DNA of 64,000 nucleotides from Abditibacterium sp. (GCA_965199495.1 CBDASK010000003.1:1312001-1376000), one strand, 5' to 3'. Numbered from the stretch's first letter, positions 660 to 64,000 are shown. A program made the numbers and translations. Notes: generated by a model from the letters alone, not told the origin.

Positions 660-2477
660 ATGCCCCGCAAAACCAAGCCGCAACCGCAAAACGACATCGC
701 CGCGCGCCAATTCGCGTTGGGTCAGCAACTGCTGAGCGAAAGCCCGCTCTTTAATCCGCTGTTGTTGCACGCCGAAATCGTGCGGCAACACAACGGCATC
801 GTGCCACGCGATGGCTGGGCGCTCGTGCGGCGCGATGGAACGATTTTCGTTCATCCGACGCGGCGCGCCGAACCGCAGGAGTGGCAGTGGATTTTGGGGC
901 ATTGCTTGCTGCACTTGGCGTTCGAGCATTTTCGCGAGGACAACTCGCCCGCGTGGAACGCGGCGTGCGATGCGGTTGTCGCGCGCTTTTTGGCCGATAC
1001 CAAAACCGGCGCGCCGCCGCTCGAATTGACGCAAATCCTGCCGCCATTGCCTTCGCGCGACGAACACCAGCTGGCGCGGCAGTTCGAGCGCGACGGCATT
1101 CCCGCTGCTTTTGGCAACATCGGAACGGCGGGCATCGGCGCGCTCGATATGCAATGGAGCGAGGCGCCGCGAAGGGATTGGTATCGCGGCGCGGCGCTCG
1201 ATTGGGCGCAGATTTTCGCCAACGGACTCAGCCACGCCGTCACTCATGCCGTGCGCGTGGCTGCGGGTGTCGCTGGCGAATTTGACCGCGACAATGGCAA
1301 ACAGACCCGCGCGCAAAAGGCGCGCAGTTGGTTTATCGCGTCCTATCCGCTTTTGGGCGCCCTCGCGGCGGCGTTCGAGTTGATTGAAGACAGGACGATT
1401 TGCGCGCAACAAGAAATCTTGGTCGCCGCGATTAACGTGCGGCGACGCATCATTTACATGAACCCGGCGGCGGGCATGAGCGAGGGCCAGTGCCGTTTCG
1501 TGATGGCGCACGAGTTCCTGCACGCGGCCCTGCGCCACGACGCAAGACGCGGCGGGCGCGACGCTTATCTCTGGAATATTTCGTGCGATTACGTTATCAA
1601 TGATTGGTTGCTCGAAATGGGCATCGGCGATGCGCCGACGTTTGGCATGTTGCACGATCCGGCGCTGCGCGGCCAGAGCGCCGAGGCGATTTACGATTTG
1701 GTGACCAAAGATTTGCGGCGTTATCGCAAGTTGCAGACGATGCGCGGCTTTGGCAAATCGGATATTCTGGGCGACGACACGCCGTGGTGGAAAATCGGCG
1801 AGGGCATGACGCTCGATGCGTGGTATCGCGGCGCACTTTGCCAAGGTTTGGCTTACCACGAAGGCGAAGGGCGCGGTTTGTTGCCCGCCGGGTTAGTGCA
1901 GGAAATTCGCGCTTTGGAAATGCCGGTCGTGCCGTGGGATGTCGAGTTGGCGCAGTGGTTTGATGCGCACTTCTCGCCACTCGAAAAGCGGCGTTCGTAT
2001 GCGCGACTCAGCCGCCGCCAGAGTTCGGCGCCCGACATCGTGATGCCCGCTTTTGTCACGCCCGAAGAAGCGCATTATTCGCGCACATTTGGCGTGGTTT
2101 TGGACACGTCGGGTTCGATGCCGCGCGAACTTTTGGGCAAAGCATTGGGCACGATTGCGTCGTATGCCATCGCGCACGAAGTGGCGGCGGTGCGCGTGGT
2201 TTTCTGCGACGCCAGCGCCTACGACGAGGGTTGGATGGCGCCCGAAGACATCGCCGGGAACGTCGTGATTCGCGGGCGCGGCGGCACGATTTTGCAGCCC
2301 GCCATTGATTTATTGGAAAGCGCGCCCGATTTTCCCAACAATGGCCCGATTTTGATTTTGACCGACGCGCAGTGCGAAAGCGATTTAATCGTGCATCGCG
2401 ATCACGCGTTCGTCGCGCCGAGGGGCGCGCGCTTTCCGTTTCGCCCGCGCGGGCCGGTGTTCGAGTTATCGGGATAA
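660..2477 (+). CDS. DUF2201-type metallopeptidase + VWA-like domain protein
   Basis: Two zincin-like repeats (HCLLH...WNAACD; HEFLH...WNISCD) and a C-terminal VWA MIDAS-like set (DTSGS, GGT, LTD). ATG 660 is preferred because the extension to 522 is palindrome sequence. Confidence 0.85.
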   Translation: MPRKTKPQPQNDIAARQFALGQQLLSESPLFNPLLLHAEIVRQHNGIVPRDGWALVRRDGTIFVHPTRRAEPQEWQWILGHCLLHLAFEHFREDNSPAWNAACDAVVARFLADTKTGAPPLELTQILPPLPSRDEHQLARQFERDGIPAAFGNIGTAGIGALDMQWSEAPRRDWYRGAALDWAQIFANGLSHAVTHAVRVAAGVAGEFDRDNGKQTRAQKARSWFIASYPLLGALAAAFELIEDRTICAQQEILVAAINVRRRIIYMNPAAGMSEGQCRFVMAHEFLHAALRHDARRGGRDAYLWNISCDYVINDWLLEMGIGDAPTFGMLHDPALRGQSAEAIYDLVTKDLRRYRKLQTMRGFGKSDILGDDTPWWKIGEGMTLDAWYRGALCQGLAYHEGEGRGLLPAGLVQEIRALEMPVVPWDVELAQWFDAHFSPLEKRRSYARLSRRQSSAPDIVMPAFVTPEEAHYSRTFGVVLDTSGSMPRELLGKALGTIASYAIAHEVAAVRVVFCDASAYDEGWMAPEDIAGNVVIRGRGGTILQPAIDLLESAPDFPNNGPILILTDAQCESDLIVHRDHAFVAPRGARFPFRPRGPVFELSG

Positions 2478-2858
2478 ATCGCCGCACGGAAAGCGGCCCG
2501 CGCGGTATTCCTGCCACAATGCACCCAGCCATTCGTCGCTATAATCGGCTTGTAACGCGCGCGCGAGCAAATCGAAATCGTCGGCGACGCAAGCAGCCAC
2601 GTCGGCGTGGCTGCTGATGGCGAGAGCGCGTTTGAATGCCCATTCGCAAAGTTCGTCAATCATCACATTTTTGGTTTGACGCTCGCCCTCGACTTCAATG
2701 TCTTGCACCGCGCTATAAACGCGCATCCATTCGGCATCGAAAATCTGGCTATCGCGCGCATTGAGCATTTGATTGGCGATTTTTGGATCGGAAAAATGGA
2801 GGGCGCCCAATAAATCGAGGGCGCACGCCTGAGCATTAAATTTGGAAACTTTGTCCAT
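2466..2858 (-). CDS. Hypothetical protein
   Basis: 130-aa ORF with host-like codon use, directly downstream of the ATPase gene on the same strand. Confidence 0.6.
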   Translation of the reverse strand: MDKVSKFNAQACALDLLGALHFSDPKIANQMLNARDSQIFDAEWMRVYSAVQDIEVEGERQTKNVMIDELCEWAFKRALAISSHADVAACVADDFDLLARALQADYSDEWLGALWQEYRAGRFPCGDLSR

Positions 2859-2919
2859 AATTCAGGGCGTGAGCAGAATACTTGCCGTTTCGCCCGCGCG
2901 GCAACTGCGTCACTCCTCT

Positions 2920-4506
2920 CTAATCTTCGTGGCCGACCAGAACTTTCATCGCTTGCTGCGGCGACAGATAACCGGCCAATAACTTGGCGCGCGCGTCGTC
3001 GCGCAGACTGGAAAAGCCTTCTTCGCGGGCGGCGCGGCGCAGTTCGTCGCTGTCTTTTTGCGCCATGATCGCGCGGCGCAGTTTCGGCCCGATTTCGAGC
3101 ATTTCGACAATCGCCACGCGGCCCTTGGTGCCCGTGCCGCCGCAATGTTCGCAACCAACGCCTTTCATCAATTGCGTGCCGACTGGCAAATCGAAAAAGT
3201 TCAGCCACTCTTCCATTTCGGGGTCGTCGGCGGGAATCGGTTGGCGACAAAAACGGCAACTCAGGCGGGCCAATCGTTGGGCCAAAACGCCTTCGAGCGC
3301 CGAGGCGATGAGGTAGGCCGGAATGCCCATGTCCTGCAAGCGCGTGATGGCCGCGACCGCCGAGTTGGTGTGTAGCGTTGCCAACAGCAAATGGCCGGTC
3401 AGGGCGGCGCGCACAGCCACGTCGGCGGTTTCTTGATCGCGAATTTCGCCGACCAGAATCGTATCGGGGTCTTGGCGCAAAATCGAACGCAACGCGCGCG
3501 CGAAAGTCAGGCCGATTTCGGAATGCACGCTGGTTTGTGTCACGCCGCGCAGTTCGTATTCGACCGGGTCTTCGACGGTGATGACGTTTTTGGTCTCGTC
3601 GCGCGAAGCCGCTAAGGCCGCGTAAAGCGTGGTGGTTTTGCCCGAACCGGTCGGGCCGGTCACCAAAATCATGCCGTGCGAACGCGTCAGCATCGAGTAA
3701 AAGCGCTTTTGATCTTTGGGCGAAAATCCCAGTTGGCCCAAATCGGTGACGAGCGACGAGTGATCCAACAAACGCATCACGATTTTTTCGCCGTGCAGGT
3801 TGGGCAACGTCGAGACGCGAAAATCGAAAGTGCGCGTGCCGTATTTGGCGCGAAAACGTCCGTCCTGGGGCAATCGCTGTTCGGTGATGTCAATGTTGGC
3901 CAGCACTTTGAAGCGCGAAATCAGCGGCAAACTCAAGTCGAGCGGCAAAATGCGGCGCGATTGCAGCAGCCCGTCAATGCGATAGCGCGGCAACAATCCT
4001 TCGGGCGTCGGTTCGAGGTGCAAGTCGGAAGCGCCATCGGCGATGGCCGCTTTGAGCATCTCGTTGGCGAAACGCACGACGGGCGCCAGCGCCGGGTCTT
4101 CCTCTTCGATTTCGGCGCCCTGAACGACGAAATTGCCTTCGATAGCGGCGACCTTGTTGGCGCCCAATCCGACTTCGCTGGCGGCGGGCGCGGCGGGCAT
4201 CGCCCGTTCGACGGGCGCTGGCGTGGCCGTCTCTACAACTCTGGGCGGGCGGGCCTGAAGCGGCTGCGATGCGCGCGGCGGCGCTTGATTTTGCCCGTTG
4301 GTTTGTCCGTTACCGGGCGCCGTGGCTGCATCGAGGGCGTTGGGGTCGAAGCGCAAAATTTCGCCGGGCGCGAGCGCGCCTAAACGCAACATCGTGCGCG
4401 AAAGCGATTCGCCTGTTAAGCGTTGCGCGGCGAAATCTTTGAGTTGATCGCGCGTCACCAAACCCGATCCATGCACGGCTCTTGCAAATTGTTCGTCAGT
4501 TATCAT
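2920..4506 (-). CDS. GspE/PilB family type II secretion/type IV pilus assembly ATPase
   Basis: ASDLHLEP, PQDGR, Walker A GPTGSGKTTT, TVEDPVE, RQDPDTILVGEIRD, TGHLLLATLH, Cys4 motif CRFC/CEHC; AGAGGA RBS upstream. Confidence 0.93.
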   Translation of the reverse strand: MITDEQFARAVHGSGLVTRDQLKDFAAQRLTGESLSRTMLRLGALAPGEILRFDPNALDAATAPGNGQTNGQNQAPPRASQPLQARPPRVVETATPAPVERAMPAAPAASEVGLGANKVAAIEGNFVVQGAEIEEEDPALAPVVRFANEMLKAAIADGASDLHLEPTPEGLLPRYRIDGLLQSRRILPLDLSLPLISRFKVLANIDITEQRLPQDGRFRAKYGTRTFDFRVSTLPNLHGEKIVMRLLDHSSLVTDLGQLGFSPKDQKRFYSMLTRSHGMILVTGPTGSGKTTTLYAALAASRDETKNVITVEDPVEYELRGVTQTSVHSEIGLTFARALRSILRQDPDTILVGEIRDQETADVAVRAALTGHLLLATLHTNSAVAAITRLQDMGIPAYLIASALEGVLAQRLARLSCRFCRQPIPADDPEMEEWLNFFDLPVGTQLMKGVGCEHCGGTGTKGRVAIVEMLEIGPKLRRAIMAQKDSDELRRAAREEGFSSLRDDARAKLLAGYLSPQQAMKVLVGHED

Positions 4507-4636
4507 CAAATAATTCCTCTGTCAGTTATTTACGGCGAGTTTAGACGAACGAAGGCAATTCTCGTTGCGAATGCGTCTTCCGTAAATCGTGGCGCATAGA
4601 AATTCAATCCAACATTTGAAGCAGACGAAATGGCAT

Positions 4637-4764: not shown

Positions 4765-5673
4765 TCAAACTTCCACTTCTACCAGCGCCCGCACTTCCTC
4801 AAAGCGCGCGATGCCCGCTTGCGCGCCGACGCATCTGGCTTTGAGCGCCGCCGCCGCGCTCGCCCAATTTAAACGTTTGCATAGCGGCCAATCCCACGCC
4901 AGCGTCGCCGCGTAGACGCCGTGAAATACGTCGCCGCAACCGGTCGTGTCCAAGACTTGCGCCGGGAAAGCCGCGACATGAATCGTTTCTTTGCCATCGA
5001 ACGCCCACGCGCCATTTTCGCCCGCCGTGACGACAACGACGGCGCGCATTGGATTCCACAGCGCGCGAGCAGCCACGGCGGGCGCGCGTTCGCCGCACAA
5101 TTGCGCGGCGAAGTTTTGGCCCAGCACCAAATGGTCAACGAGCGGGAAGAAATCGGCCCAATCCGGCACGTTATCGCGCTCGAAATCGGCGACAACCGGC
5201 ACGCCATTTTCGCGCGCGATGCGGGCGGCGCGCGTGTTGCCCGCGCCGCCATAATGGTCAATGAGCAACACGCGCGAGGCCGCGATTTCATTGGCTGGCG
5301 GCGCGTCGGGCGGCGCGCCAACTAAACCCGGTTTTTGAAAAAATATCGCCCGCGTGTGCGCGGTTTGGTCAACGACAATCGTCGAACGAATCGCCGCCGC
5401 ATCGGCGCGCCACGAAACCAAATCGGTCGCGATGTTTTCTTGTTCCAAAATTTGCGCGACCTGCCGCGAAGTCGCGTCAAACCCCAACATTCCGCCATAA
5501 GCGCAGGTCGCACCCAGGCGCGCGCCCGCCACCAAAGCCGTCGCTGTCAGTCCGCCGCCCTGCGTTTGAGAATCGTTGACCAACACTTTGCCGTCGGGCG
5601 CGGGATAATTGTCCACGAACAACAATTCGTCAATCGTGGCGCAACCCAGGCCGAGAATATCGCGAGTTTTCAT
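4765..5673 (-). CDS. PfkB family carbohydrate kinase
   Basis: GGGLTATA N-terminal signature and DTTGCGDVFHG C-terminal signature; start at MKTRDILGLG. Confidence 0.92.
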   Translation of the reverse strand: MKTRDILGLGCATIDELLFVDNYPAPDGKVLVNDSQTQGGGLTATALVAGARLGATCAYGGMLGFDATSRQVAQILEQENIATDLVSWRADAAAIRSTIVVDQTAHTRAIFFQKPGLVGAPPDAPPANEIAASRVLLIDHYGGAGNTRAARIARENGVPVVADFERDNVPDWADFFPLVDHLVLGQNFAAQLCGERAPAVAARALWNPMRAVVVVTAGENGAWAFDGKETIHVAAFPAQVLDTTGCGDVFHGVYAATLAWDWPLCKRLNWASAAAALKARCVGAQAGIARFEEVRALVEVEV

Positions 5674-6556: not shown

Positions 6557-6684
6557 GGACTGCGTGAGTTGAACGGGCAATCGGGTGTATTTGCCGAATC
6601 GTAAAAGCGCGGCGAACCCGCCGTGGCTGTTTTGGCGCTGCGGGCCGATGCGCCGCCGACGGCAATGCAAATTTCGGCATATAA

Positions 6685-6794: not shown

Positions 6795-7640
6795 TTATGG
6801 CTTGGGAACGGGCGTAGGCGTGGGAGCGGTGGGGAGAGCCGCTATAGGTCTGCCGCAAGAATCATTTGCTTCTGCAGGAACGGCTGGAGGCTGAAGGCTG
6901 GAACCGGTGCCACTGCCAAACGCTCGATCATGGAAGCGAGGAGTGCCCGTCATACGAGTTTTGAAATCTGCTGGCACATCAGCGGACACCATGAACTTGA
7001 CGTGCCCATCGGCATAAAGCAAATTGCCACCGCCATTGTGACCATCAAATAACGCGTCGGTAGAACCTCCATCACTGGTGGCCCAGAAATACCCATCATT
7101 GATCGTTTTGCCCTCATCCACCAATAAAACGATGTCGCCCGGACTGGTAATTCGAGTGGCAGCAATGCCCGCGAGCGCACAGTTCATCGAATAACTCAGC
7201 TTTTTGCTGTTGGCATCGACCGCGCTGGGACAAACGTAAATTCCAGCCGATTTGGTATAGGCTGCTAACGCGCCTATTGAGTTCTGAGGATAGGCTTCAT
7301 GGTCAGGAACTGTCGCGAAAGTAGTGGGATTTGCCAATCCCATTTCAGTATCAGTGAAGTTTTTGGGAGTTCCTCCTGTTCCGCCAGTAACCCAATGCCC
7401 GCCAGAAGCCCATTTCTGATATTGGCCCGCCTGCGGATATTTGCCGCGCGAATCCTGTGTGTATAGCAAAAACGCGGTGCCCAACTGTTTCATGTTCGAC
7501 AAACATGCGGTTTTGCGACCGTTTTCGCGAGCGCGGCTAAACACGGGAAAGAGAATCGCGCTCAAAATGCCGATGATGGCGATGACGACCAAAATTTCGA
7601 CCAGGGTAAAAGCGCGACGCGGCGCGGGGAAATGTTTCAT
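6795..7640 (-). CDS. Prepilin-type N-terminal cleavage/methylation + H-X9-DG (DUF1559-like) protein
   Basis: AFTLVEILVVIAIIGILSAILFPVF, C-x-SNMKQLG, YVCPS, HNGGGNLLYADGHVK. Confidence 0.92.
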   Translation of the reverse strand: MKHFPAPRRAFTLVEILVVIAIIGILSAILFPVFSRARENGRKTACLSNMKQLGTAFLLYTQDSRGKYPQAGQYQKWASGGHWVTGGTGGTPKNFTDTEMGLANPTTFATVPDHEAYPQNSIGALAAYTKSAGIYVCPSAVDANSKKLSYSMNCALAGIAATRITSPGDIVLLVDEGKTINDGYFWATSDGGSTDALFDGHNGGGNLLYADGHVKFMVSADVPADFKTRMTGTPRFHDRAFGSGTGSSLQPPAVPAEANDSCGRPIAALPTAPTPTPVPKP

Positions 7641-7717: not shown

Positions 7718-8587
7718 TTATGAGTTTTGCCAATATTGCGCGCACGCTTTTAAATGTTCCAGCACTTCCATCGGCACGCATTGTCCGCCGTTGACCTGCG
7801 CCAGTTTCACCGCCGGTTTGTTGGCGCCATGAAAATCGCTGCCGCCCGTGCTAATCAAACCGAATTGCTGCGCCATGCGATTCGTCCATTCGATTTCATC
7901 GGGCGTATAAGCGCCGTAATAAGTTTCGAGTCCGTCTAAACCCCATTCGCTCCACTGTTTTAGCATCGCTTCGCCGCGCTCGAAATCGAGCAGTGACGAA
8001 CGTTCCGAAGGCGCGCGCGTCGGGTGCGCCCACACAGCCACGCCGCCCGCGTCGTGAATCAGTTTCACGGCATCGGCGGGATGCAACGATTTTTTGCTCG
8101 AATAAGCCGGGCCACCTTCTTTAAGTAAATCGTCGAACGCTTCCTGAACGCTGCCAACCGCGCCGGTTTCGATCAAAGCCTGCGCGATGTGAGGCCGACC
8201 TATTTGCGCGTCCGGCCCGGCGATTTCGCGAATGCGCGCCATCGTGACTTTATGTCCCATTTGGTTGAGCGTGCCGACGATGCGCTGGTTGCGCGTGGCT
8301 CGTTCCTGTTGTAATTCGGTCAAAGCGCGGCCCAGTTCGCTATCGCGCTCGAAGTAATAGCCGAGCAGATGATATTTCTCGCCCTCGCCCGCGACCGAAA
8401 GTTCGATGCCCGGCACGACTTCAACGCCGAGTTCTGCGCCTGCGCGCATCGCTTCATCCCAGCCGCCAAACGTATCGTGATCAGTCAGGGCGATGGCTTG
8501 CAATCCAACTTCATGCGCGTGTTCAACAAGTTCGCGCGGCGTGAAGGTGCCATCGGAGGCGGTTGTGTGGGCGTGGAGATCAATCAT
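7718..8587 (-). CDS. PHP-domain metal-dependent phosphoesterase
   Basis: DLHAHTTASDG, LTDHD, GRPH, AHP, TGGSDFHG. Confidence 0.92.
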   Translation of the reverse strand: MIDLHAHTTASDGTFTPRELVEHAHEVGLQAIALTDHDTFGGWDEAMRAGAELGVEVVPGIELSVAGEGEKYHLLGYYFERDSELGRALTELQQERATRNQRIVGTLNQMGHKVTMARIREIAGPDAQIGRPHIAQALIETGAVGSVQEAFDDLLKEGGPAYSSKKSLHPADAVKLIHDAGGVAVWAHPTRAPSERSSLLDFERGEAMLKQWSEWGLDGLETYYGAYTPDEIEWTNRMAQQFGLISTGGSDFHGANKPAVKLAQVNGGQCVPMEVLEHLKACAQYWQNS

Positions 8588-8602: not shown

Positions 8603-9142
8603 TCAGTCAATTAAACCTTGATCGCGCAAATAATCCAAGATGCGCTGGAGCGAAACTTCCATCGGTTCGCTGTCCGAATGCGCCACGACTTCGGGATTGC
8701 GCGGCGCTTCATACGGGTCGGAAACGCCGGTAAAATTGGGGATTTCGCCCGCCAACGCGCGTTTATACAAACCTTTCACGTCGCGGCGCGACAATTCTTC
8801 AAGCGAACACTGCGTGTAAACCTCGACAAACGCGACGCCGTGGCTGCTGGCGAGGGCGCGGCATTCGTCGCGCACGCTGGCGAATGGCGAAATCGCCGCG
8901 CTGATCGCGATGACGCCGTTGCGCGCCAACAAATCGCACACGAAACCGATGCGCCGCACGTTGATGTCGCGGTCTTCGCGACTGAACGTCAACCCGGCGC
9001 TGAGGTTGGTGCGCACGATGTCGCCGTCCAAACGTTCGACGCGATAATCACGCGCGCGAAACTCGGCTTCGAGCGCCTCGGACAGCGTGCTTTTTCCCGA
9101 ACCGGACAAACCGGTGAACCATAAAACAAACCCTTGGTGCAT
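8603..9142 (-). CDS. cysC: Adenylyl-sulfate kinase
   Basis: [34 protein letters not shown]. Confidence 0.95.
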
Positions 9143-9231: not shown

Positions 9232-10011
9232 GTGCCGTTTACCTTTTCCAAAGGCATCTCCGAAAAGGCGCGTGGCGCCGCCGCCGATCCGAATTCATTG
9301 CAAGCCTCGCCACTGAGCGCGGGGCCGCACGCGCCCGATCATCCGCCGCCCGCGCCTCAGACGCCGATGCAAAAACTTTCCGATGCCCTCGCGCTGTTTT
9401 TGTCGGCGGTGTTGTCGCCCTATATCGTGATTCCCGTGGGCACGCTTTACGTGGTGTGGGCGAGGTCGCGCACACACCCCGAACAGTTCTGGCCGTGGCT
9501 GGGCGTTTCGCTGTTGTTTTCGACGATTTTGCCGGTTCTCTTTATTTTGTTTGGCATCTGGCGCGGCACCATCACCGACATTCACGTCATGGAGCGCACG
9601 CAGCGCGGCGGGCCGTTTGTGGTGGCAATCGTCGGCAGTCTGGTCGCCGCCGCCGTTTTGCATTGGATGGGCGCGCCGCGCAGCGTGTGGGCTTTGAGCG
9701 CGGTATTGGCGGTCAACGGTCTGGCGATGCTATTCATCACCAACTACACCAAAATCTCGATTCACGTCGCGGTTTTGTCGGCGACGATTCTGGGCGCTTC
9801 GATGCTCGAACCCGAACTGCCCGCCAAAATTTTATTGATGCTCATTCCCGCCTTGATGTGGGGCCGCTGGCGCCGAGGCCGCCATACGTGGGCGCAGGGA
9901 ATTATGGGATGCGTCGTCGCGTGCGTGCTCACGGCGGGCACGGTCTATTCGATTGACGGTTTGGCGCAACGCGTCCCGCAATATATCGAACGCGTCAAAC
10001 GCATGCTGTAA
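9232..10011 (+). CDS. Integral membrane protein, PAP2-like
   Basis: Multiple hydrophobic helices; KISIH and R...RHT...Q motifs. Confidence 0.7.
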
Positions 10012-10212: not shown

Positions 10213-10788
10213 ATGAAATATCTGGCAATTGCCCTATTTTGCCTATTCGCAGTGGCCAAGGCAGCCACGGCGCAGGGAAACGCGACTTTTGGGGATCGGC
10301 AAACGACGACGATGACGTTGCAAAGCGCGCCCTTTTTCGCGATGGGCGGCGTGGGTTACGGTGGCCAACGCTCTTTTGGCGAACGGGCGTTGCGCGATTT
10401 AGCGCGCTTTGAAGACGCCGCCTTCGGCTTTGAAGCGGTATTGGATAACAGAAACGCTTCGCGCGCGGGACAACTTTACGCGTTGATCGGTTTGCGTTGG
10501 ACGAGCGAACGCGCTTTTCACGAGCGAATCGCGCCTTTTTTACTCGACAGAACTCCGCTTGAAGTTCGCGGTGGCTGTTTCGTTTTCAAAATGTCCGTCA
10601 GTTCTATCGCCCAAGAAATCGAGCGTGGCGCTTATAAACGTCCTCTGGTTCTCAATTACATTGCTCCCTCGATTGCAGCCGAGGCGCGCTGGCATCAGGC
10701 CAGATTATTCGCCCCTTTTTATATAAAAACCGGACTTCAAACAAAGAGCCGCTCAATCGCGCCGACGCAACGGCTCCAAAACCCATAA
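10213..10788 (+). CDS. Hypothetical exported protein
   Basis: N-terminal signal-peptide-like segment MKYLAIALFCLFAVAKA. Confidence 0.65.
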   Translation: MKYLAIALFCLFAVAKAATAQGNATFGDRQTTTMTLQSAPFFAMGGVGYGGQRSFGERALRDLARFEDAAFGFEAVLDNRNASRAGQLYALIGLRWTSERAFHERIAPFLLDRTPLEVRGGCFVFKMSVSSIAQEIERGAYKRPLVLNYIAPSIAAEARWHQARLFAPFYIKTGLQTKSRSIAPTQRLQNP

Positions 10789-13080: not shown

Positions 13081-13088
13081 TAAAAATT

Positions 13089-48050: not shown

Positions 48051-48108
48051 AAAAATAGGAGTCGTTAATTTATTGTAATGTATTTTTGCCTTCTTTCCTT
48101 ATTATCTA

Positions 48109-48908: not shown

Positions 48909-49029
48909 AAATTTTTCTCACTCGTAAATTATCAGATTTATTGACTACAAATCAACTGTGTCGGATTTGGAGTAAGCCCAGCGCATGAATTTTAAATATA
49001 GTGTTCTGACTCATTTGATTTGCTGAATT

Positions 49030-51537: not shown

Positions 51538-53532
51538 CTAACGAAAGATGGTGAACAGACTAGCCGCTCCGAGAGCGTCGCTCAATTGGAAACCGCGTCC
51601 TTTGGATGGGATGAAGAGCACGTCGTTGGGTTGGAGCATCACGTTTTGGGTGGTCGCTCCTTTTTTACCACCGTAGAGGGCTTCCAAGTCAATCGGGATC
51701 GGCGTGACTTGACCGCCTACCACACGGACGATGCGCGCGTCTTTGAGGTCAGCGCTTCCGGCGCCGCGCGTGCCGGTTGGGCCGCCAGCGTTGTTGATGG
51801 CGTTGAGTACGGTGGCATCCGAGGGCGAGTCGGGATAGGCAAACTTGCCCGGCGCGTTGACCTGGCCAACTACGGTGTAGAACACGGTGACTTGTGGAAT
51901 GACCAGCGCGTCGCCCGCTTTTAAGCGGAAGCCGGTGAGCGAAGGTTGATCTTTGGTGCCGCTTAAAAACACGTTCAAATCGAGCGGGATTTTGACGCCC
52001 TGACGCAAAACATAGGCCTTGCTCAGCGCGGCTTTGTCGTTGCCGTTGCCCGCCTGCGCCAACAGCGAAACCACACTTAAATCGTCGGTCAGATTGTAAA
52101 CGCCCGGACGCGCAATCGCGCCACTGACGGTGACTTGATCGGAAATATCGGGCACGCGAATCACGTCGCCGCGCAGCAAACGGAAACTTGAAATTTGCGG
52201 ATCGAGCGCGTTTTCGACCAAAACCGGACGCAAATCCATTTGGATTTGCTTGCCATCACGCAAGACCGAAACGTTGCGCAAGCTGGCATTTTTGGTCGGG
52301 TCGCCCGCTTTGGCGAGGGCCGAGAGCAGAGTTTCGTTGTCGGTTATCGGATACGAACCCGGCGTAGCCACGGCGCCGCTGATGATAACGTTGGAATCGC
52401 GTTTGGGCACGAACAAAACGTCATCGGGCCGCAAAATCGTGTTGTCGGGCGCGGTGCCGTTTTGAATCGCCGCCACGTCAATCGGCGTGATACGTTGCTC
52501 GCCATTGACAACGCGCGTCAGCGTTACTTTGGATAAATCGGCGCCTTCGCCCGGCCCGCCAGCCTGCGCCAAGAGGCGCAAAAGCGTGGCGTCCGCCGGG
52601 TCTTCGGGCAGAGGATAAAAGTTGGGCTGTTTCACTTCGCCGGTCACGCCGATGCGGTCGGTGTTGGCGGGCACCGTCAACACATCGCCCAATTCAAACT
52701 GAAAATTGTTGAGCGGCGAATCAGCCGGAATGCGGCCCGATTCGACGGCGCTCAAATCGAGCGGGATGTTTTTTCCAGCGCGCAAAATGTAGGCGTTGCG
52801 CGCCGATGCGCCCGTTTTCAGACCGCCCGCCTGAGCCAGCAAACTGGCAACGGTCAGGTTTTCGTTCAAATCGTAGTTGCCGGGTACGTTCACGTTGCCG
52901 GTCACGGTGAGTTGTTTGGTGAAATCCTGCGCGTCCAAAATTATCAAATCGTCGGCGCGTAGCGGCAAATTAGCGGTACTCGTCGGATCGGAAATAGCGC
53001 CCGCGACATCAAAGGGAATATCGCGGCCTTGGCGGATAATGCGTCCTTTGATACGCGTGGGTTTGGTAGACAAACCACCCGCCAGACTAATCAAATCAAC
53101 GGCGCGCGTTCCGGTTTTGAATGGATAGGGGCCGGGGGCTTTGACGGCGCCCGAAATGACCGCCTGTTTCAACGCCGCCGCCCTGACGGTGACTTGCACG
53201 CTCGCATTGTTAAGCGTGCGCCCCAAACGGCGCTCGATCTCTTTGGCCAATGCCAACGCGGTTTTCCCCTGCGCCATCACTTCGCCGACACCGGGCACGG
53301 TGATTTTTCCATCGGGGCGCACCACAACTTCGCCTCCGACATCGGGATGATTGGAAACGGTGATTTGCAATGTATCGCCCACACCCAATTGATATTGGGC
53401 GCCCAAAGCGGGCGCAGTCGAGGGTAAGGGCGCGGCCCATGACGGCGTCACGCCAGCGAGGGCACCGCCGCACAAAACTAAAGCCAGCTTCAAGCGGCGT
53501 GGGGGAAAAGATACAAAGAAGAGATGAGACAT
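51538..53532 (-). CDS. wza: Polysaccharide export protein with multiple SLBB repeats (Wza/OPX)
   Basis: Y.LG.GD.L, VRPDGKI, about six V.G.V..PG.Y...AGG repeats; start at MSHLFF. Confidence 0.9.
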   Translation of the reverse strand: MSHLFFVSFPPRRLKLALVLCGGALAGVTPSWAAPLPSTAPALGAQYQLGVGDTLQITVSNHPDVGGEVVVRPDGKITVPGVGEVMAQGKTALALAKEIERRLGRTLNNASVQVTVRAAALKQAVISGAVKAPGPYPFKTGTRAVDLISLAGGLSTKPTRIKGRIIRQGRDIPFDVAGAISDPTSTANLPLRADDLIILDAQDFTKQLTVTGNVNVPGNYDLNENLTVASLLAQAGGLKTGASARNAYILRAGKNIPLDLSAVESGRIPADSPLNNFQFELGDVLTVPANTDRIGVTGEVKQPNFYPLPEDPADATLLRLLAQAGGPGEGADLSKVTLTRVVNGEQRITPIDVAAIQNGTAPDNTILRPDDVLFVPKRDSNVIISGAVATPGSYPITDNETLLSALAKAGDPTKNASLRNVSVLRDGKQIQMDLRPVLVENALDPQISSFRLLRGDVIRVPDISDQVTVSGAIARPGVYNLTDDLSVVSLLAQAGNGNDKAALSKAYVLRQGVKIPLDLNVFLSGTKDQPSLTGFRLKAGDALVIPQVTVFYTVVGQVNAPGKFAYPDSPSDATVLNAINNAGGPTGTRGAGSADLKDARIVRVVGGQVTPIPIDLEALYGGKKGATTQNVMLQPNDVLFIPSKGRGFQLSDALGAASLFTIFR

Positions 53533-56463: not shown

Positions 56464-58932
56464 ATGCAAATTATAACTCTCCCGACAGAGTGGCAACTGT
56501 GCGCCGTAGGCCGCACCGACCAAGTTCCCGATAACGTTTTAAACCGCGAAATTCCCGCCCAAGTGCCGGGTTGCGTGCATCTCGATTTGATGCGCGAAAA
56601 TTTGATTCCCGATCCATATCTCGATTTAAACGAAGCCTTAGTTCAATGGATCGGCTTCACCGACTGGGAATATTCGACGCGTTTTGAAATCGGCAAAAAC
56701 GATTTAGCCGAAGAACGCGTGGATTTGGTGTGCGAAGGTTTGGATACCATCGCCACGGTTTGGGTCAACGATGTCGAAGTCGGCCATTCCGAAAATATGC
56801 ACGTCGAGCGGCGTTATTCGATCAAAGAGCAGTTGCGCGAAGGTGAGAACACGATTCGGATTCGCTTCGATTCGGCGGTTTATTATGCGCGCGCGCGCCG
56901 CGACGAACTGGGCGATTTGCCGCACGCGAACGTGTCGGGCGCCGAGCCGTTTCACTTCATCCGCAAGAACGCCTGTAACTTCGGCTGGGATTGGGGGCCG
57001 GGCCTTACGACGGCGGGCGTGTGGAAGCCGATTCGTCTGGAGGCGTGGAGCGTCGCGCGCATCAAAAGCGTGCGGCCTCTGGTGAAAGTCGCCAACGAGA
57101 AAGTCGCGGTTGTCGATGTGGAAGTTGAATATGAAACAACGGGCGACTTTACGACTTACGGCTTCTCTGGAATGATTTCAACTGAAGACGCAGATTACAA
57201 TTTTCCTGCGCCAACTTCCGGCGGACGCGATGAGAATAAAGACACTTGGACTTTTTATAATCAAAATCCGAGATTATGGTGGCCCCGTGGCTATGGCGAG
57301 CAGAACCTTTATAATCTTAGAATTTCCATTTCTGGCGAATCAATGAAAAAGTTGGACACGTTCGAGTGCCAAATCGGTCTCCGCGAAGTCGAACTCGACA
57401 CTTCGCCCGATGAGATTGGCGCGGCTTGGACGGTGAAGATTAACGGCAAAGAGGTTTGGTGCAAGGGCGCCAACTGGATTCCCGATGATGTGTTTCTCAC
57501 GCGCGCCAATGATCCGGCACGGTTGCGGGCGCGCTTGACGCAGGCGCGCGACGCGGGCATGAATATGATGCGCATCTGGGGCGGCGGCATCTACGAAACC
57601 GACGACTTTTACGACATCTGCGACGAACTCGGTCTGCTCGTCTGGCAGGACTTTACCTTCGCCTGCGCCGCCTACCCCGAAGATGCAGCCACGGCGGCCA
57701 GCATCGAGGAAGAGGCGCGCTTTAACGTGACGCGTTTGAGCCGTCATCCGAGTCTGGTTTTGTGGAACGGCTGCAACGAGAATATCTGGGGCTACTTCGA
57801 TTGGGGTTGGGAAGCCAAATTGGACGGCAAACCGTGGGGCGCGCTCTATTATTTCGATGTGCTGCCGAAGGTTGTGGCCGAACTCGATCCGACGCGGCCC
57901 TACTGGGCGGGTTCGCCCTTTAGCGGCTCGATGGAGATTCATCCCAACGCCGACGCCTACGGCAACAAGCATATGTGGGACACCTGGAACGACGTGAATT
58001 TCACCTTTTTCAGACGCTATAGTCCGCGCTTCGCCAGCGAGTTCGGCCATCAGGCGCCGCCGAATTACTCGACATTGGCGCGCGCGATTCCCACCGACAA
58101 ACGCGATCCGATGTCGGTTTCGATGCTATCGCATCAGAAAGCGCACGGCGGCAACGAGAAGTTGCACGCGCGCTTGTTGGAACATTTCGCCATGCCCGAA
58201 GGTTTGGACGATTGGCTTTATCTGACGCAATTAGTTCAGGCCAGAGCCATGACGACGGCGTGCGAATGGTTTCGCACGCGCTCGCAGTGCCGGGGCGCGT
58301 TGTATTGGCAACTCAACGATTGTTGGCCGGTGATATCGTGGGCCGCAATTGACGGCGACGGCCAACCGAAGCCGCTGTATTACGCGACGAAACGTTTCTT
58401 TCGCGAGCGATTGCTAACGATTCAGCCGGACGGCGCGGGGCTGGCGTTGTGGGCGCATAATGATAGCGACGAAGTTTGGGTTGATGATTGTTGGATTCAA
58501 CAATATTCGATGGAATATAAACAGATAGAATGGTTTCATCTACCTTTACTCATCCAGCCACGCACCTTAATTAAAGTTGATACATTGGAGCCTTTTGCGC
58601 CAAACAAAGATAGCTTCTTGGTAGCAAACACGAAGGAGGGCGAGCGTTACGGTGAAGCGTTCTGGTTCTTCGACGCCGACAAAAATCTGCGCTATCCCGA
58701 ACCGAAATGGACGACCGAGATTGACGGTTCAACATTGCGCGTCAAAGCGGCGACGTTGTTGCGCGATTTGACAATTAACGTGGATCGGTTCGGCGGTTCT
58801 ATCGCCGAGAATGGCGTGACTCTGTTGCCGGGCGAGACTTGGGAAATCGAGATTACGGGCGCGGATTTGGCGGCGGTGGACTTCGGCGGGCGCCCGATTG
58901 TGCAGTGCGCGAATTGGTATGGGGCGAAGTAG
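56464..58932 (+). CDS. Glycoside hydrolase family 2, beta-mannosidase
   Basis: FGWDWGP, KGANWIP, RIWGGG, WQDF, WNGCNE, SEFG, YWQLNDCWP. Confidence 0.93.
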   Translation: MQIITLPTEWQLCAVGRTDQVPDNVLNREIPAQVPGCVHLDLMRENLIPDPYLDLNEALVQWIGFTDWEYSTRFEIGKNDLAEERVDLVCEGLDTIATVWVNDVEVGHSENMHVERRYSIKEQLREGENTIRIRFDSAVYYARARRDELGDLPHANVSGAEPFHFIRKNACNFGWDWGPGLTTAGVWKPIRLEAWSVARIKSVRPLVKVANEKVAVVDVEVEYETTGDFTTYGFSGMISTEDADYNFPAPTSGGRDENKDTWTFYNQNPRLWWPRGYGEQNLYNLRISISGESMKKLDTFECQIGLREVELDTSPDEIGAAWTVKINGKEVWCKGANWIPDDVFLTRANDPARLRARLTQARDAGMNMMRIWGGGIYETDDFYDICDELGLLVWQDFTFACAAYPEDAATAASIEEEARFNVTRLSRHPSLVLWNGCNENIWGYFDWGWEAKLDGKPWGALYYFDVLPKVVAELDPTRPYWAGSPFSGSMEIHPNADAYGNKHMWDTWNDVNFTFFRRYSPRFASEFGHQAPPNYSTLARAIPTDKRDPMSVSMLSHQKAHGGNEKLHARLLEHFAMPEGLDDWLYLTQLVQARAMTTACEWFRTRSQCRGALYWQLNDCWPVISWAAIDGDGQPKPLYYATKRFFRERLLTIQPDGAGLALWAHNDSDEVWVDDCWIQQYSMEYKQIEWFHLPLLIQPRTLIKVDTLEPFAPNKDSFLVANTKEGERYGEAFWFFDADKNLRYPEPKWTTEIDGSTLRVKAATLLRDLTINVDRFGGSIAENGVTLLPGETWEIEITGADLAAVDFGGRPIVQCANWYGAK

Positions 58933-59107: not shown

Positions 59108-61420
59108 ATGTCCTTTCGCAGCAACTTATCTCCCGACCAGAAGATGATCATCATCGTGGCGATCTGGGCGCTTGTCATCGGCGCGACCGCCATCACGCTT
59201 TACGAACTCACGCCGCCGCCCGCTCCGCCAACGCCCGTCGTGCCCGCCACCGTCGGTGAATCGGCGCCCGCGACTGGCGAAGAGCGCGTTTTCACCGCGC
59301 CCGGCGCGCCCGCGCCGAGCGAAACCCCCGCGCCCGACGCGCCGAATCAGCCACAAGTTTTTACCGCGCCCGGCGCACAGCCACCGGGCGCGCAACCGCA
59401 AAGCGGGCCGGGCGGAGCGCCGCCGAACAATGGGCCGCGCATCGCCAACAATTCGGGCATGGGCAATCGCCCGATGCCGATTCCGCAAATGCAGCCACCG
59501 CGTTCGATGAATGCTGGCGGCCCATTGCCGATGCTTCCGCCGCCACCGGGCGCGAACCGCAATCGGCCTTCGACGCCGCAGGTCAACGCGGGCGCGCAAC
59601 AGGCGTTCGAGGCGGGCAACGCGGCGTTGCGCGCGGGCGATAAGAACAAAGCCGCGTCCGAGTTCGCACGCGCGGTGCAGTTGGCGCCCGATAATATGCC
59701 GTCGCGTTTGAATTTGGCGAGCGTTTATTTGGACTTGAAGCAACCGGACAAAGCGATTCCGCATTTGCGCGAAGTCGCCACGCGTGACCCGAAAAACGCG
59801 GGCGTGCAGTTCACCCTCGCGCGCGCACTGTTGTCGCAAAAGCAGTTGGACGAAGCCCTGCCCTATCTGCGTAAAACCGTTCAGTTGGCGCCGCAAGAAC
59901 GCGAAGCGAAAGTTTTGTTGGCGCAGGTTTTGTTCGATAAAAAGCAGCCGCAAGAATCTTATAAACAGTGGGCGAGTTTGGCGCAGCAAAATCCCAAAGA
60001 CCTCGAAGCGCAGATGCAAGCGGCGGGTTTGGCAAACGACGTTTTGAAGCAACCGGCGCAGGCAGAAAAGTGGTTGCGCCGCGCCGTGGCTGCCGCGCCG
60101 CGCGCGCCGCAACCAGCATTGATGTTGGGCCAAATTTTGTTAAGTCGCAAAGACGCCAAAGGCGCCGCCGCCGTTTTAACCAAAGCCGCGCAAGCCAATA
60201 CGGGCGAGTTCGCGGTTTATCCGTTATTAGCCGACGCGCGCACGGCGGCGGGCGATACCAAAGGCGCGGCGAGCGCGCTGCAAAGCGCGTTGGGCAAATT
60301 GCCAAGCGGCAAAACCGACGCGCAACGCGCCAATATTCGCGCGACCGAAGGGGCGCTTCGTCTGGCTCTGGGCCGCACTTTGGGCGCGGATAAACAGAAT
60401 AAAGAAGCGCGCGTCCAATTCGATAAAGCGGCGGCACTCTTGCCCAAAGACCCGCAGCCACGCGCGCTGGGCGCCATTGCGGCGCTGCAACTCAAGGACG
60501 ATGCGGGCGCGATTAGCGGTTTCAAAAGCGCTTTGGCGCTCGATCCCAAGCGCGCGCAAGACCGCAAAACTTTGGCGCAGTTGTTGGCGCAAAACAAACA
60601 GTGGAAAGAGGCCGACGCGCAGTTCGCGACCTACGCGCAGAGCCAGCCCGGCGACGCCGACGCGTTGTTGCAATGGGCGAGCGTCGCCGACCAACTCAAA
60701 GACCCGGCGCGTTCGGCGCAGGTTTTGGGCAAAGCCGTCCAAGCCGCGCCCCGCAACGCGGCGGCTTGGACGCAGTTGGCACTGGCCCAACGCGCAAGCG
60801 GCGATAAAAAAGGCGCGTTGGCTTCGTTTAACCAACTGAATAAATTGAAGCCAAACGACGCCGATTCGCTTTACGAAACCGCGCGATTGCAAAGCGAATT
60901 GGGCGACAACACAGCGGCGTTTAGCAATTTCAAAAGCGCCATCGCGGCGCGTCCCCAAGCGACCGAGGCGTATGGGGCGATGCTCGAAGCCGCCGACAAA
61001 GCCGGGCAAAACGCGAGCGCGCGCCAGTTTTTGGTGAGCCAGATGGCGAAAAAAGAGAACGTCGCCGCGCTCAAACAGGTGTTGGATTTTTATCAACGCA
61101 AAAATCAGAGCGCACAGGCGCGCGATTTTTTGACCGACTTAGTCGCGCGCGCGCCCAAACAAGATGCTGCCCGCACCGCGCTCGACGCAATGAAAGGCGC
61201 GTCTGCCGCGCCCGCCTCGGCGCCGTTGCCGACCAAAACGCCGCCGATAAAATTAGCCGCCGTTCCCACGCCGGAGCCGACTGCGACACCAATGGTGCAA
61301 CCCGCGACGCAACCGGTGGCTGTGCCGACGATGAAATCGGTTATCGCGCCGCGCAAAGCGGTGAAGCATCAGGCAATCTCTCAAGATGTTCCGTTGGTTT
61401 CGACACAACCGACGCCTTAA
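59108..61420 (+). CDS. Membrane-anchored multi-TPR protein with Pro-rich linkers
   Basis: N-terminal TM helix, Pro-rich region, many TPR repeats. Confidence 0.88.
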   Translation: MSFRSNLSPDQKMIIIVAIWALVIGATAITLYELTPPPAPPTPVVPATVGESAPATGEERVFTAPGAPAPSETPAPDAPNQPQVFTAPGAQPPGAQPQSGPGGAPPNNGPRIANNSGMGNRPMPIPQMQPPRSMNAGGPLPMLPPPPGANRNRPSTPQVNAGAQQAFEAGNAALRAGDKNKAASEFARAVQLAPDNMPSRLNLASVYLDLKQPDKAIPHLREVATRDPKNAGVQFTLARALLSQKQLDEALPYLRKTVQLAPQEREAKVLLAQVLFDKKQPQESYKQWASLAQQNPKDLEAQMQAAGLANDVLKQPAQAEKWLRRAVAAAPRAPQPALMLGQILLSRKDAKGAAAVLTKAAQANTGEFAVYPLLADARTAAGDTKGAASALQSALGKLPSGKTDAQRANIRATEGALRLALGRTLGADKQNKEARVQFDKAAALLPKDPQPRALGAIAALQLKDDAGAISGFKSALALDPKRAQDRKTLAQLLAQNKQWKEADAQFATYAQSQPGDADALLQWASVADQLKDPARSAQVLGKAVQAAPRNAAAWTQLALAQRASGDKKGALASFNQLNKLKPNDADSLYETARLQSELGDNTAAFSNFKSAIAARPQATEAYGAMLEAADKAGQNASARQFLVSQMAKKENVAALKQVLDFYQRKNQSAQARDFLTDLVARAPKQDAARTALDAMKGASAAPASAPLPTKTPPIKLAAVPTPEPTATPMVQPATQPVAVPTMKSVIAPRKAVKHQAISQDVPLVSTQPTP

Positions 61421-61970: not shown

Positions 61971-62394
61971 TCTCCACGCGTCGCCCGTTCCCTTCGATAC
62001 TAATGGCGATATTCCATGTCGCGCGTGGCAGCCACGCCGCGATCATCGAAGGCCACTCGACGACTCGCACGGCATCGGTGCGACCGAAAAAATCTTCCAA
62101 TCCGGTGTCGCGCAGTTCGTCCCAACCCAGATTTTCCATGCGATAGGCGTCCAAATGCAACAACGGCGGTGAGCCAGGATATTCGTTCATCAACACAAAC
62201 GTCGGCGAAGTCACATCTTCCCGAATGCCCAGGGCGCGCGCTAAACCTTGCGTCAGAGTCGTTTTGCCTGCGCCCAATGGGCCGCTCAGCGTCACAAGGT
62301 CGCCGGGCTGGAGACGTGCGCCCAATGCTTCGCCCCACGCGCGCAATGCAGGGGCGTCGGGGAGAAATTGGCTTTGTTGTAAGTCGGGTTGCAT
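61954..62394 (-). CDS. tsaE: tRNA t6A biosynthesis ATPase
   Basis: LSGPLGAGKTT, VTSPTF, HLDAYR, VEW. Confidence 0.95.
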   Translation of the reverse strand: MQPDLQQSQFLPDAPALRAWGEALGARLQPGDLVTLSGPLGAGKTTLTQGLARALGIREDVTSPTFVLMNEYPGSPPLLHLDAYRMENLGWDELRDTGLEDFFGRTDAVRVVEWPSMIAAWLPRATWNIAISIEGNGRRVEIRIAN

Positions 62395-62689: not shown

Positions 62690-63652
62690 ATGATCTCTCG
62701 TCTTCGGCCCTGTGGCCCTCTTCGCACTTCGCGTTTGCGCACCTCGCGCGCGCTGGGCTTGCTGCCCGTTTTGGCGCTTTCGGGCGCGTTGCTTTTGAGT
62801 TCTGCCGCGCACGCGCAGACGACCATCACCAAAGATGGCAGTTCCGCCGTCGGTTTCGTGCCCGGCTCGCCCACGCGCGCCGGAGCCGTCACGGTTGTGG
62901 CGGCTGCCGTTGATACGTCGGGCGATGCTGAAGTCGCCAAGCGCGCGCTGGCTTATGCCAACCAAGCGCTCAAAGCCACGCCGGGTTACAGCCCGATGGC
63001 CGATTCGGATTACAAACCGCTCAGCGAAAAGCTGGCCAAGGAGGCCACCAAAACCGATTGGGGCTGGCCCTTCACCGCGAGCGATTACCAGAAAATCGGC
63101 AAGCTGGGCAAAACGCCCAACGCCATGACGATCACGGTTTCGCCGACGGGCAACGGCTACGACGCGGTCGCCGAAATGTATGACACCGCGCGCGGCGCTC
63201 TCGTTGGCTATGGCAAAGCCAGCGCGACTGGCGATGATGCATTGCAAAATTCCATCGGTGACGCAGTGACGCAGTTGGGCGCAACCGTCACGCTCGATGG
63301 CATCGTGATTTCCAAGCCCAACGGTTATCTGGCGCGTCTGTCGCTGGGCACGCTGGCGGGCGCGCGCGGCGGGGCGCGCGTCGAATATTTGGACGGCGCA
63401 GGCAACCCGATTGCTTATGGCACCATTTTCGACATCGCGCCCGGCGAAGCTCTGGCGACTGTCGCGCCCGAAACGGCCTATTCGCAATTGTTCGTCAATA
63501 CCAAAGTGCGTTTGGTCAACAACCCGACGCTCAAACGCGCCCTGCCCGATTTTACCAAACAGTCCGAGCAAGAATTCAACAAATTCCAGAACCAATTCGG
63601 CGTGGCTGTGGCGGCGGCGGCGGCGATTTATTATATCGCGGGCGGCAAATAA
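62690..63652 (+). CDS. Hypothetical exported protein with hydrophobic C-terminus
   Basis: Signal peptide ending AHA|Q; host-like codon use; followed by a terminator. Confidence 0.75.
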   Translation: MISRLRPCGPLRTSRLRTSRALGLLPVLALSGALLLSSAAHAQTTITKDGSSAVGFVPGSPTRAGAVTVVAAAVDTSGDAEVAKRALAYANQALKATPGYSPMADSDYKPLSEKLAKEATKTDWGWPFTASDYQKIGKLGKTPNAMTITVSPTGNGYDAVAEMYDTARGALVGYGKASATGDDALQNSIGDAVTQLGATVTLDGIVISKPNGYLARLSLGTLAGARGGARVEYLDGAGNPIAYGTIFDIAPGEALATVAPETAYSQLFVNTKVRLVNNPTLKRALPDFTKQSEQEFNKFQNQFGVAVAAAAAIYYIAGGK

Positions 63653-63672
63653 ACTTAAAAGCCAACACTTCT

Positions 63673-63716
63673 CAAACGTTTCGAGGGTGAAAAACCCTCG
63701 GAACGTTTTGTTTTTT
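63673..63716 (+). terminator. Intrinsic terminator
   Basis: AAACGTTTCGAGGGT-GAAAA-ACCCTCGGAACGTTT followed by a T-tract. Confidence 0.85.
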
Positions 63717-64000
63717 GCTGCTTTTCACGGGTAAATAAAAATAACAGAGTTGACTTGCGTGCGTTTACGGTAAAATAAAAGGAAGAAACATCGCGTTCCT
63801 TTCAACCAACGAGCGAATCGGGCCTGATGGCAGTTGCGGCAATTGACAGCAGCCACGGCGCGTTCTAAAATTTAGACACCTCGCTTTTTCCGTTTTCAAG
63901 GCGCTCTTGCAAAAGGGCGACGATGCGAAGGACGGAATGGGCGCGCGATTCCAATCTGTTTCATCGAACGTCAGTAACTCAAACAACTATGCTATTTCTG

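Follow-up and report, generated by a model that had tools for sequence, protein, structure and literature searches.

A non-palindromic word repeated throughout the chromosome of Abditibacterium sp. and two close relatives carries the genomic signature of a DNA uptake or self-recognition signal

We analysed a stretch of 64,000 nucleotides from the environmental bacterium Abditibacterium sp. (GCA_965199495.1 CBDASK010000003.1:1312001-1376000), in the following called the window, which corresponds to G000:C3:1312001-1376000 of the source genome G000, an assembly of three contigs. Throughout the window, a short non-palindromic word with the GC-rich core CAGCCACG (reverse complement CGTGGCTG) is repeated, which an earlier note on this DNA had proposed as a new DNA uptake sequence. 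The full consensus is a-G-CAGCCACG-N-C-G; the word-bearing form written out is aGCAGCCACGGCG. This feature is real, strong, lineage-specific and maintained at the DNA level. In the number of its copies, their indifference to strand, their rarity in foreign DNA, the way they arose by substitution, their preferred frames and their dialects, it matches the genomic signature of the DNA uptake sequences (DUS) of Neisseriaceae and the uptake signal sequences (USS) of Pasteurellaceae. The best single explanation we can offer is a signal for uptake or self-recognition; we advance this explanation tentatively, as one that is quite possible and still falls short of being probable.

In the window, 41 exact copies of the core were found on the two strands, compared to 2.04 on average and 6 at most in 100 dinucleotide-preserving shuffles, none of which reached 41. 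All 40 positions listed in the earlier note are occupied by exact copies; one more, at 58555..58562, had been overlooked. Of the 41 copies, 23 lie on the plus and 18 on the minus strand; the earlier note had counted 22 and 18. A recount of the flanks over all 41 copies gave the same numbers as before: 33 copies are followed by NCG and 35 are preceded by a purine. Likewise, the six one-mismatch copies noticed earlier all keep AGCCACG and the subsequent NCG, and differ from the word in the first base only. On the 4.72-Mb chromosome, the core occurs 3,083 times (1,558 plus, 1,525 minus), i.e. 0.65 times per kb, where Markov models of order 1 to 3 predict 161-248 copies; the excess noticed in the window is thus borne out genome-wide. 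For the 12-mer GCAGCCACGGCG, the same models predict 2.3-3.9 copies in the genome, which contains 690, and forms of the CAGCCACG word head the ranking of all 12-mers. Note that Markov models of order 5 and above, including the maximal order, are uninformative: their tables are filled chiefly by sub-words of the word, which they thereby absorb. The sequence logo of the copies, a-G-CAGCCACG-N(not A)-C-G, is flat outside the interval from -2 to +12, counted from the start of the core. It is the same in genes and spacers; in both, the conserved span is about 13 nt, and the information extends over 11-13 nt. In a literature search for the CAGCCACG word, no report of it was among the matches listed (20 of 2,476), which were primers and unrelated sequences.

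In order to separate the word from its coding context, genes were called with a simple codon-score caller instead of a standard gene finder, which gave 3,586 genes and a coding fraction of 85%. By these calls, 2,830 of the chromosomal copies (92%) are genic, 248 lie in spacers and 5 on boundaries; the two copies of the window that had been described as lying outside genes (at 6622 and 63850) do so with this caller, too. The word is read in all six frames and not merely in the several frames seen in the window. The main ones are xCA-GCC-ACG with 841 copies and, on the other strand, xxC-GTG-GCT-Gxx with 1,202 copies, and in both of them positions 2, 5, and 8 of the word fall on wobble sites. When synonymous codons were shuffled within each gene (n = 30), about 263 core copies remained of the 2,830 observed, which corresponds to an 11-fold excess; for the extended form CAGCCACG[C/G/T]CG, about 52 compared to 1,930, the excess was 37-fold. 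Shuffling the order of codons yielded still fewer copies. With Markov models specific for each compartment, the excess of the core is 13-fold both in genes (2,830 versus about 215) and in spacers (248 versus about 19), and that of the extended form 74-fold in genes and 126-fold in spacers. Moreover, the word imposes rare codons, against the codon habits of the host, as had been suspected: outside the word, GCA and GCT make up 6% and 10% of the alanine codons, and ACA makes up 9% of the threonine codons.

Copies are indifferent to strand. Relative to the origin and terminus given by GC skew, the two orientations account for 50.6% and 49.4%, and the best possible split of the chromosome into two arms reaches a co-orientation of at most 51.7%. 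GC skew is nearly absent from this contig (G000:C3), with a cumulative range of 6,319 over 4.72 Mb and no gene-strand bias, and the putative skew origin and terminus lie asymmetrically, at 1.92 Mb and 0.18 Mb. The spacing of the copies is more even than that of all 61 out of 61 control 8-mers of similar count (coefficient of variation 0.928 versus 0.957-1.475), short gaps being depleted. Pairs of copies at distances of up to 60 nt are not in excess (105 observed, 119 expected under a Poisson model); among them, 99 are inverted and 6 direct, with peaks at 12-15 nt. Of the tight inverted pairs (up to 30 nt), 62 out of 77 lie inside genes.

The word is restricted to one small clade. For one protein of the window, the nearest named records are Abditibacteriaceae metagenome-assembled genomes (MAGs) with 55-60% identity, which suggests a placement near this family. 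Among 27 genomes of the family, GCAGCCACG was counted 1,783 times in G000, 1,411 times in G011 and 972 times in G004; the other 24 genomes contain 28-176 copies, as does the reversed-pattern control. Thus, 3 of the 13 genomes of the genus are enriched, and its 10 other members as well as 14 further members of the family are at background. Judged by the identity of an 881-aa protein to that of G000 (G011 96%, G004 90%, all 10 other members of the genus 64-69%) and by the nucleotide identity of sampled DNA (83.6% and 78.6% versus 70-73% for the others), the three carriers form a tight subclade. G011 keeps the word of G000. In G004, dispersed copies read AG-CAGCCACG-T-C-C instead of ending in N-C-G; dialects in relatives, which the earlier note had proposed to look for, do exist. 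Six non-carriers (G002, G003, G006, G009, G010, G012) were scanned for k-mers in 100-180 kb each, and none of the six contains another dispersed hyper-abundant word; G001, G005, G007, and G008 were counted for the CAGCCACG word only. The top k-mers of the six scanned genomes derive from a CRISPR-like (clustered regularly interspaced short palindromic repeats) array, a CAG repeat or local repeats, and the idea of genus-wide dialects was dropped for the sampled non-carrier DNA. One of these repeats, in G006:C24:1-100000, has 32 copies and k-mers resembling a CRISPR repeat; its sequence is unlike that of the array in G000.

A comparison of orthologous sites, based on samples of 100 kb from G011, 220 kb from G004 and 720 kb from non-carriers, shows how the copies came about. 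Of 37 G000 sites in aligned blocks, G011 has 25, and counted from G011, 25 of 28 sites recur in G000. G004 has 14 of the 71 G000 sites that could be compared with it, and the six non-carriers have 3 of 101. Where the sites differ, they do so by 1-6 substitutions, mostly at positions placed at wobble sites, and only 14 of 101 are near an alignment gap. Hence the copies arose in place by substitution, often to rare codons. Two sites within a helicase-like gene of the window exemplify this. At 23235..23242 (plus strand, followed by ACG), G000 and G011 read ACA-GCC-ACG and G004 reads GTC-GCC-ACG, and the 10 other members of the genus have unrelated codons of the V-L-K type. At 23662..23669 (minus strand, followed by CCG), G000 and G004 read GTG GCT G, and most non-carriers read GTG GCG, so that the preferred GCG corresponds to the rare GCT. 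Once present, copies are conserved beyond what the proteins demand: G000 and G011 differ synonymously in 7 of 109 word codons, compared to 76 of 372 flanking codons (Fisher p = 4.5e-4), which makes the silent positions of the word about threefold better conserved than the flanks. Amino acid differences between the two genomes are equal (10.1% of word codons, 10.8% of flanking codons); relative to non-carriers, amino acid changes are mildly raised at word codons (74 of 215 versus 205 of 732, p = 0.07).

DNA that appears to have been acquired is poor in copies. Plasmid C1 (24.7 kb) contains 2 copies (0.08 per kb) and the phage-like replicon C2 (64.6 kb) contains 6 (0.09 per kb), both near background and far from the chromosomal density. 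C1 is a mobilisable plasmid with RepA, MobA/MobL, a TraG/TraD-type coupling protein and ArdC. Because of its gene content, namely a Mu-type portal, an S49 protease and a tape-measure protein of 2,400 aa, C2 is a phage or phage-plasmid replicon; it also encodes a LAGLIDADG-containing protein. On the chromosome, the largest word-free gaps coincide with low-GC stretches, with a gap cluster at 1.12-1.22 Mb and with a CRISPR array of 131 repeats. The array (G000:C3:2766480-2775003, outside the window) is a single one with a period of 66 and no copies of the word; the 14-mers that occur 131 times in the k-mer table derive from it. The gap cluster (G000:C3:1119395-1224542) adds up to about 100 kb, includes several stretches of 48-50% GC and probably represents one or more large integrated elements; among its genes are one for a type I-like N6 methylase (1138716) and another open reading frame (ORF), of 1,440 aa, matching N6_Mtase (1185445). 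Within the window, positions 36001-52000 (43-48% GC) contain 2 copies in 16 kb, whereas 39 are found in the remaining 48 kb, and this stretch looks like horizontally and recently acquired DNA. Its genes encode glycosyltransferases, FkbM-type and other methyltransferases, acetyltransferases and a Wzm/Wzt-type ABC exporter; Wza-like and Wzz/tyrosine-kinase-like export genes are located at its flank, at 51.5-55.8 kb. In genomes of carriers, the word can serve as a practical marker that distinguishes native from acquired DNA.

How an uptake signal would give rise to such a pattern can be outlined as follows. The word a-G-CAGCCACG-N-C-G would be a DNA-level self-recognition tag that is kept across the native chromosome of the three-species subclade. 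Most likely, the mechanism would be the one known for DUS and USS: fragments bearing the word would be preferred by a DNA receptor that sits at the cell surface or in the periplasm and belongs to the type IV pilus/ComEA/ComEC route, and homologous recombination would fix word-bearing alleles, a molecular drive. As a consequence of this drive, copies would build up by point substitution wherever the proteins tolerate it, would stay conserved at silent sites, and would be strand-neutral and evenly spread, and DNA newly arrived by other routes would be devoid of them. We infer that the reader of the word would be an uptake receptor and that the carrier bacteria would be able to transform.

The closest parallels are the two established systems. 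Like the DUS of Neisseriaceae, whose receptor is the minor pilin ComP, the word is non-palindromic, of a similar length (DUS about 10-12 nt) and density (about one per 1-1.5 kb), strand-neutral, and scarce in plasmids, phages and islands. Also in both cases, relatives share a core and differ in the flanks, as seen in the G004 dialect, inverted pairs are able to fold into hairpins, as they commonly do in G004, and genic copies favour few reading frames. Unlike DUS, the word has another sequence and occurs in another phylum, as the nearest named records, the Abditibacteriaceae MAGs, indicate; in addition, only 3 species among the 13 of one genus have it, whereas DUS are family-wide. With the USS of Pasteurellaceae, it has in common a short conserved core with weaker preferences in the flanks, many genic copies in frames that encode common peptides, a spacing more even than random, and an origin by point substitution. 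In contrast to USS, the word lacks helically phased AT-rich flanks, its logo being flat beyond about 3 nt on each side; its core is GC-rich, and the taxon is a different one.

The machinery that such a signal would need is encoded in G000, which possesses ComEC, DprA and a ComEA-type protein, six or more secretin ORFs, and at least seven ORFs for ATPases of the PilB/PilT family, as well as a pilB-pilT-pilC-pilD cluster, after which come four large pilin-like genes. Among the outcomes that the earlier note had regarded as damaging to its proposal, three are computational: a loss of the excess in a shuffle that preserves codons and amino acids, a strong leading-strand polarity, and a lack of competence genes. 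None of them was found: the excess survives the synonymous shuffle, the copies show no polarity, and the competence genes are present.

Several observations weigh against an uptake signal, though. All 13 genomes of the genus encode ComEC and 12 of the 13 encode ComEA, the 10 non-carriers included; competence genes were rejected as discriminators, since both groups possess them. Nor did a receptor candidate emerge that would set the carriers apart: the four pilin-like genes of the cluster have orthologues in both other carriers and also in 3 of 3 non-carriers tested. Using one query, prepilin N-termini were matched in 58-145 stretches per genome of the genus, of the N_methyl/DUF1559-type family, and because of this number of prepilin-like paralogues no pilin candidate could be singled out. 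A ComP-type receptor was not identified among the genes surveyed, no search having been aimed at ComP itself. Literature searches on competence in Abditibacteria gave nothing relevant among the matches listed. Furthermore, the genic location of 92% of the copies and of most tight inverted pairs in G000 differs from that of DUS and USS; according to a 2025 survey, about half of the copies and more than 90% of the inverted repeats are in predicted terminators in Neisseriaceae and Pasteurellaceae (bioRxiv 10.1101/2025.10.24.684340). Any long-acting drive internal to the chromosome, or any selected binding site, would equally be expected to leave foreign DNA poor in copies, conserve silent sites, space the copies evenly and be restricted to a clade, and owing to the weak GC skew and gene-strand bias, the missing polarity counts for less in this genome than it would in others. 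Of the interpretation given in the earlier note, the genomic signature has thus held, whereas the competence genes and receptor candidates fail to discriminate and the predominantly genic location speaks against it.

One of the four pilin-like proteins deserves mention for its own sake. A 618-aa protein (G000:C3:868592-870448; L158:13592-15448) has 57% identity between G000 and G011, compared to 78-86% for its three pilin-like neighbours, and these values characterise it as a putative fast-evolving pilus component.

Sequence-specific DNA uptake has, to our knowledge, been experimentally established only in Neisseriaceae and Pasteurellaceae. The survey cited above likewise takes these two families as the whole known set (bioRxiv 10.1101/2025.10.24.684340). 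The word may be the first uptake or self-recognition signal outside Proteobacteria, located in a little-studied lineage near Abditibacteriaceae and caught soon after its birth, with two dialects and the recruitment of copies into hairpins in one species; this more far-reaching proposal is somewhat more doubtful than a role in uptake or self-recognition as such. If it is true, both the origin of uptake specificity and the receptor behind it could be traced directly by comparing very close genomes. Three carriers, 10 non-carriers at 64-69% protein identity and a dialect constitute an unusually tractable contrast within one genus. Either self-preferring transformation is wider than thought, or another process writes a word thousands of times against codon preference.

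Such a process could act inside the cell. The word might be the site of an intracellular DNA machine, for example a Chi-like regulator of an AddAB/AdnAB-type helicase-nuclease, a self tag read in defence, or the site of a nucleoid or condensin-type protein, and would then be selected because it protects or organises native DNA. Like Chi (RecBCD/AddAB) and KOPS (FtsK-orienting polar sequences), it is a short asymmetric word over-represented in native chromosomal DNA, and its density in the native chromosome and near-background level in plasmid, phage-like and island DNA resemble those of Chi in core genomes. G000 encodes a 1,433-aa ORF with a PD-(D/E)XK nuclease domain, and a dimeric binder could account for the prevalence of inverted over direct pairs and for their peaks at 12-15 nt. 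Chi and KOPS, however, are words of 5-8 nt and clearly polar relative to replication, whereas the orientation of our word follows neither the skew origin and terminus nor any division into two arms. Chi/KOPS-like polarity was rejected on these grounds, with the caveat that where GC skew and strand bias are nearly absent, a polar signal might not show. With 11-13 nt and a 37- to 126-fold excess of the extended form, the word is also longer and far more enriched than known Chi sites, and a search of G000, at 95% completeness, gave no member of the RecC family (PF04257). Finally, the site of a housekeeping machine is not expected in 3 of 13 species with the other 10 at background. Taking both sides together, we consider an intracellular reader unlikely, yet the most serious competitor of the uptake signal.

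A second mechanism internal to the cell is a drive like the one discussed for HIP1 (highly iterated palindrome 1, GCGATCGC) of cyanobacteria, in which a methyltransferase target and/or sequence-biased repair or gene conversion turns near-matches into matches, with no role in uptake. The statistics do agree: HIP1 is described as a lineage-specific word that is hyper-abundant in genes, is conserved at silent positions to a degree that codon usage does not explain, and recurs at quasi-regular distances, its cause being debated (PMC5861425, PMC13756078). An origin of our copies by substitution fits a conversion process. Genes for N6/N4 and for N6 methyltransferases are present in several copies in every genome of the genus (in G000, 6 and 10 stretches match, respectively), C5 methyltransferases are matched in G000 by 4 stretches from 2 ORFs, and counts at the family level leave room for a specific enzyme common to the three carriers. 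At this level, however, C5, N6/N4, and N6 methylases are found in carriers and non-carriers of the genus alike, and no pattern of presence and absence separates the two groups. HIP1 is palindromic and a known methylase target, whereas the word is asymmetric, has no link to a methylase that we could find, and spans 11-13 nt, more than usual methylase sites. Plasmid and phage-like replicon, which may be recent or long-standing residents of the cell, are not enriched. The Vsr endonuclease scores above threshold only in G004; G000 reaches 24.5 bits, which is below the cut-off, and G011 (87% complete) has none. Repair driven by Vsr was rejected, as the enzyme is not common to the carriers. All in all, we regard a HIP1-like drive as rather improbable and as slightly behind an intracellular reader. 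The Vsr gene of G004 (102 bits) is located on a 4.7-kb contig beside a C5 cytosine methyltransferase (G004:C5:1-1865 and G004:C5:1203-2294); this contig looks like a small plasmid-borne Dcm/Vsr pair, which within the genus occurs only in this species.

G004 is also the genome that brings a mobile element to mind. In 200 kb of its DNA, 61 of 141 core copies have an 18-nt long form, cGACAC-CAGCCACG-TCCTAc, and 47 of these 61 are intergenic. The long form constitutes the inverted arms of intergenic hairpins with unrelated loops, and 5 of 6 folded examples have perfect or near-perfect stems of 20-27 bp (z scores -7.9 to -15.2). In G004:C3:200001-400000 (for example L040:250-320), these hairpins are about 50 nt long and consist of two inverted 18-22-nt arms with the core and a variable loop; they may act as terminators. 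One could conclude that the word is the footprint of a small mobile element or of a repetitive extragenic palindrome (REP), inserting copies in the style of REP-associated tyrosine transposases (RAYT) or of miniature inverted-repeat transposable elements (MITE). With regard to what characterises REP and MITE, the hairpin form of G004 is indeed intergenic, hairpin-forming and conserved over at least 20 nt, and the copies of G000 are not: there, conservation ends at about 13 nt in genes and spacers, 92% of the copies are intragenic and use six frames, and the difference to non-carriers consists of substitutions, not of insertions, 87 of 101 sites having no gap nearby. The long words of G004 are not enriched in G000, where CAGCCACGTCCTA has only 2 copies. 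In G004 itself, conserved arms around unrelated loops fit two independently maintained arms better than one mobile unit. Because of the conservation over about 13 nt and the origin by substitution, insertion of a mobile unit was rejected for G000, and we deem a mobile element very improbable as the source of the word.

That the word is a by-product of protein composition, codon bias or chance has virtually nothing in its favour except that the two commonest frames encode common Ala/Thr/Val tripeptides (A-A-T, A-V-A); it is ruled out by the synonymous-codon shuffles, which leave every protein and the codon counts of each gene unchanged, by the codon-order shuffles, by the equal fold excess in non-coding DNA, by the rare codons used in the word, and by the ten genus members of similar composition that sit at control level.

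The copies of the window, some of which have been mentioned above, are distributed as follows. Three tight inverted pairs are present. The first, inside a gene, is formed by 1229..1236 (plus) and 1256..1263 (minus). The second consists of 2594..2601 (plus, followed by TCG) and 2606..2613 (minus, followed by CCG) with a start-to-start distance of 12 nt; it sits between the convergent long genes 522-2477 (plus) and 2920-4509 (minus), and the simple caller predicts a 130-aa ORF (2466-2858, minus) across the site. The third, again inside a gene, comprises 24930..24937 (minus) and 24953..24960 (plus, followed by GCG). A TCG also follows the copy at 3414..3421 (plus), and ACG follows that at 16975..16982 (plus). 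Copies with a subsequent GCG are located on the plus strand at 5070..5077, 10262..10269, 14253..14260, 16447..16454, 32261..32268, 49782..49789, 57686..57693, and 63850..63857, and on the minus strand at 4321..4328, 6622..6629, 8839..8846, 19317..19324, 38816..38823, and 60085..60092; among these, 6622..6629 and 63850..63857 are the intergenic ones, and 38816..38823 and 49782..49789 are the only two in the low-GC stretch 36001-52000. CCG follows the plus-strand copies at 8035..8042, 12125..12132, 18345..18352, 20000..20007, 26033..26040, and 62029..62036, of which 20000..20007 is read as ACA GCC ACG with the rare codon ACA, and the minus-strand copies at 21097..21104, 25830..25837, 27401..27408, 28949..28956, and 63601..63608. 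The copies at 31373..31380, 58555..58562, and 60455..60462 (plus) and at 9494..9501, 18690..18697, and 35335..35342 (minus) have no NCG.

In the one-mismatch copies, the first base is G at 12846..12853 (minus, followed by GCG), T at 52365..52372 (plus, GCG), and A at 13123..13130 (minus, GCG), 14365..14372 (minus, CCG), 19382..19389 (plus, TCG), and 62973..62980 (plus, CCG). Two genes of the window are given as context only: a PilB/GspE-family ATPase (T2SSE) at 2920..4509 (minus), which is one of the PilB/PilT-family ORFs counted above, and a prepilin-type protein (N_methyl and DUF1559) at 6795..7640 (minus), a member of the very large prepilin-like family described above. The one-mismatch copy at 13123..13130 is located within the gene for the RNase P RNA of bacterial class A, which occupies positions 13087-13491 of the window on the minus strand and was detected with 199.8 bits.

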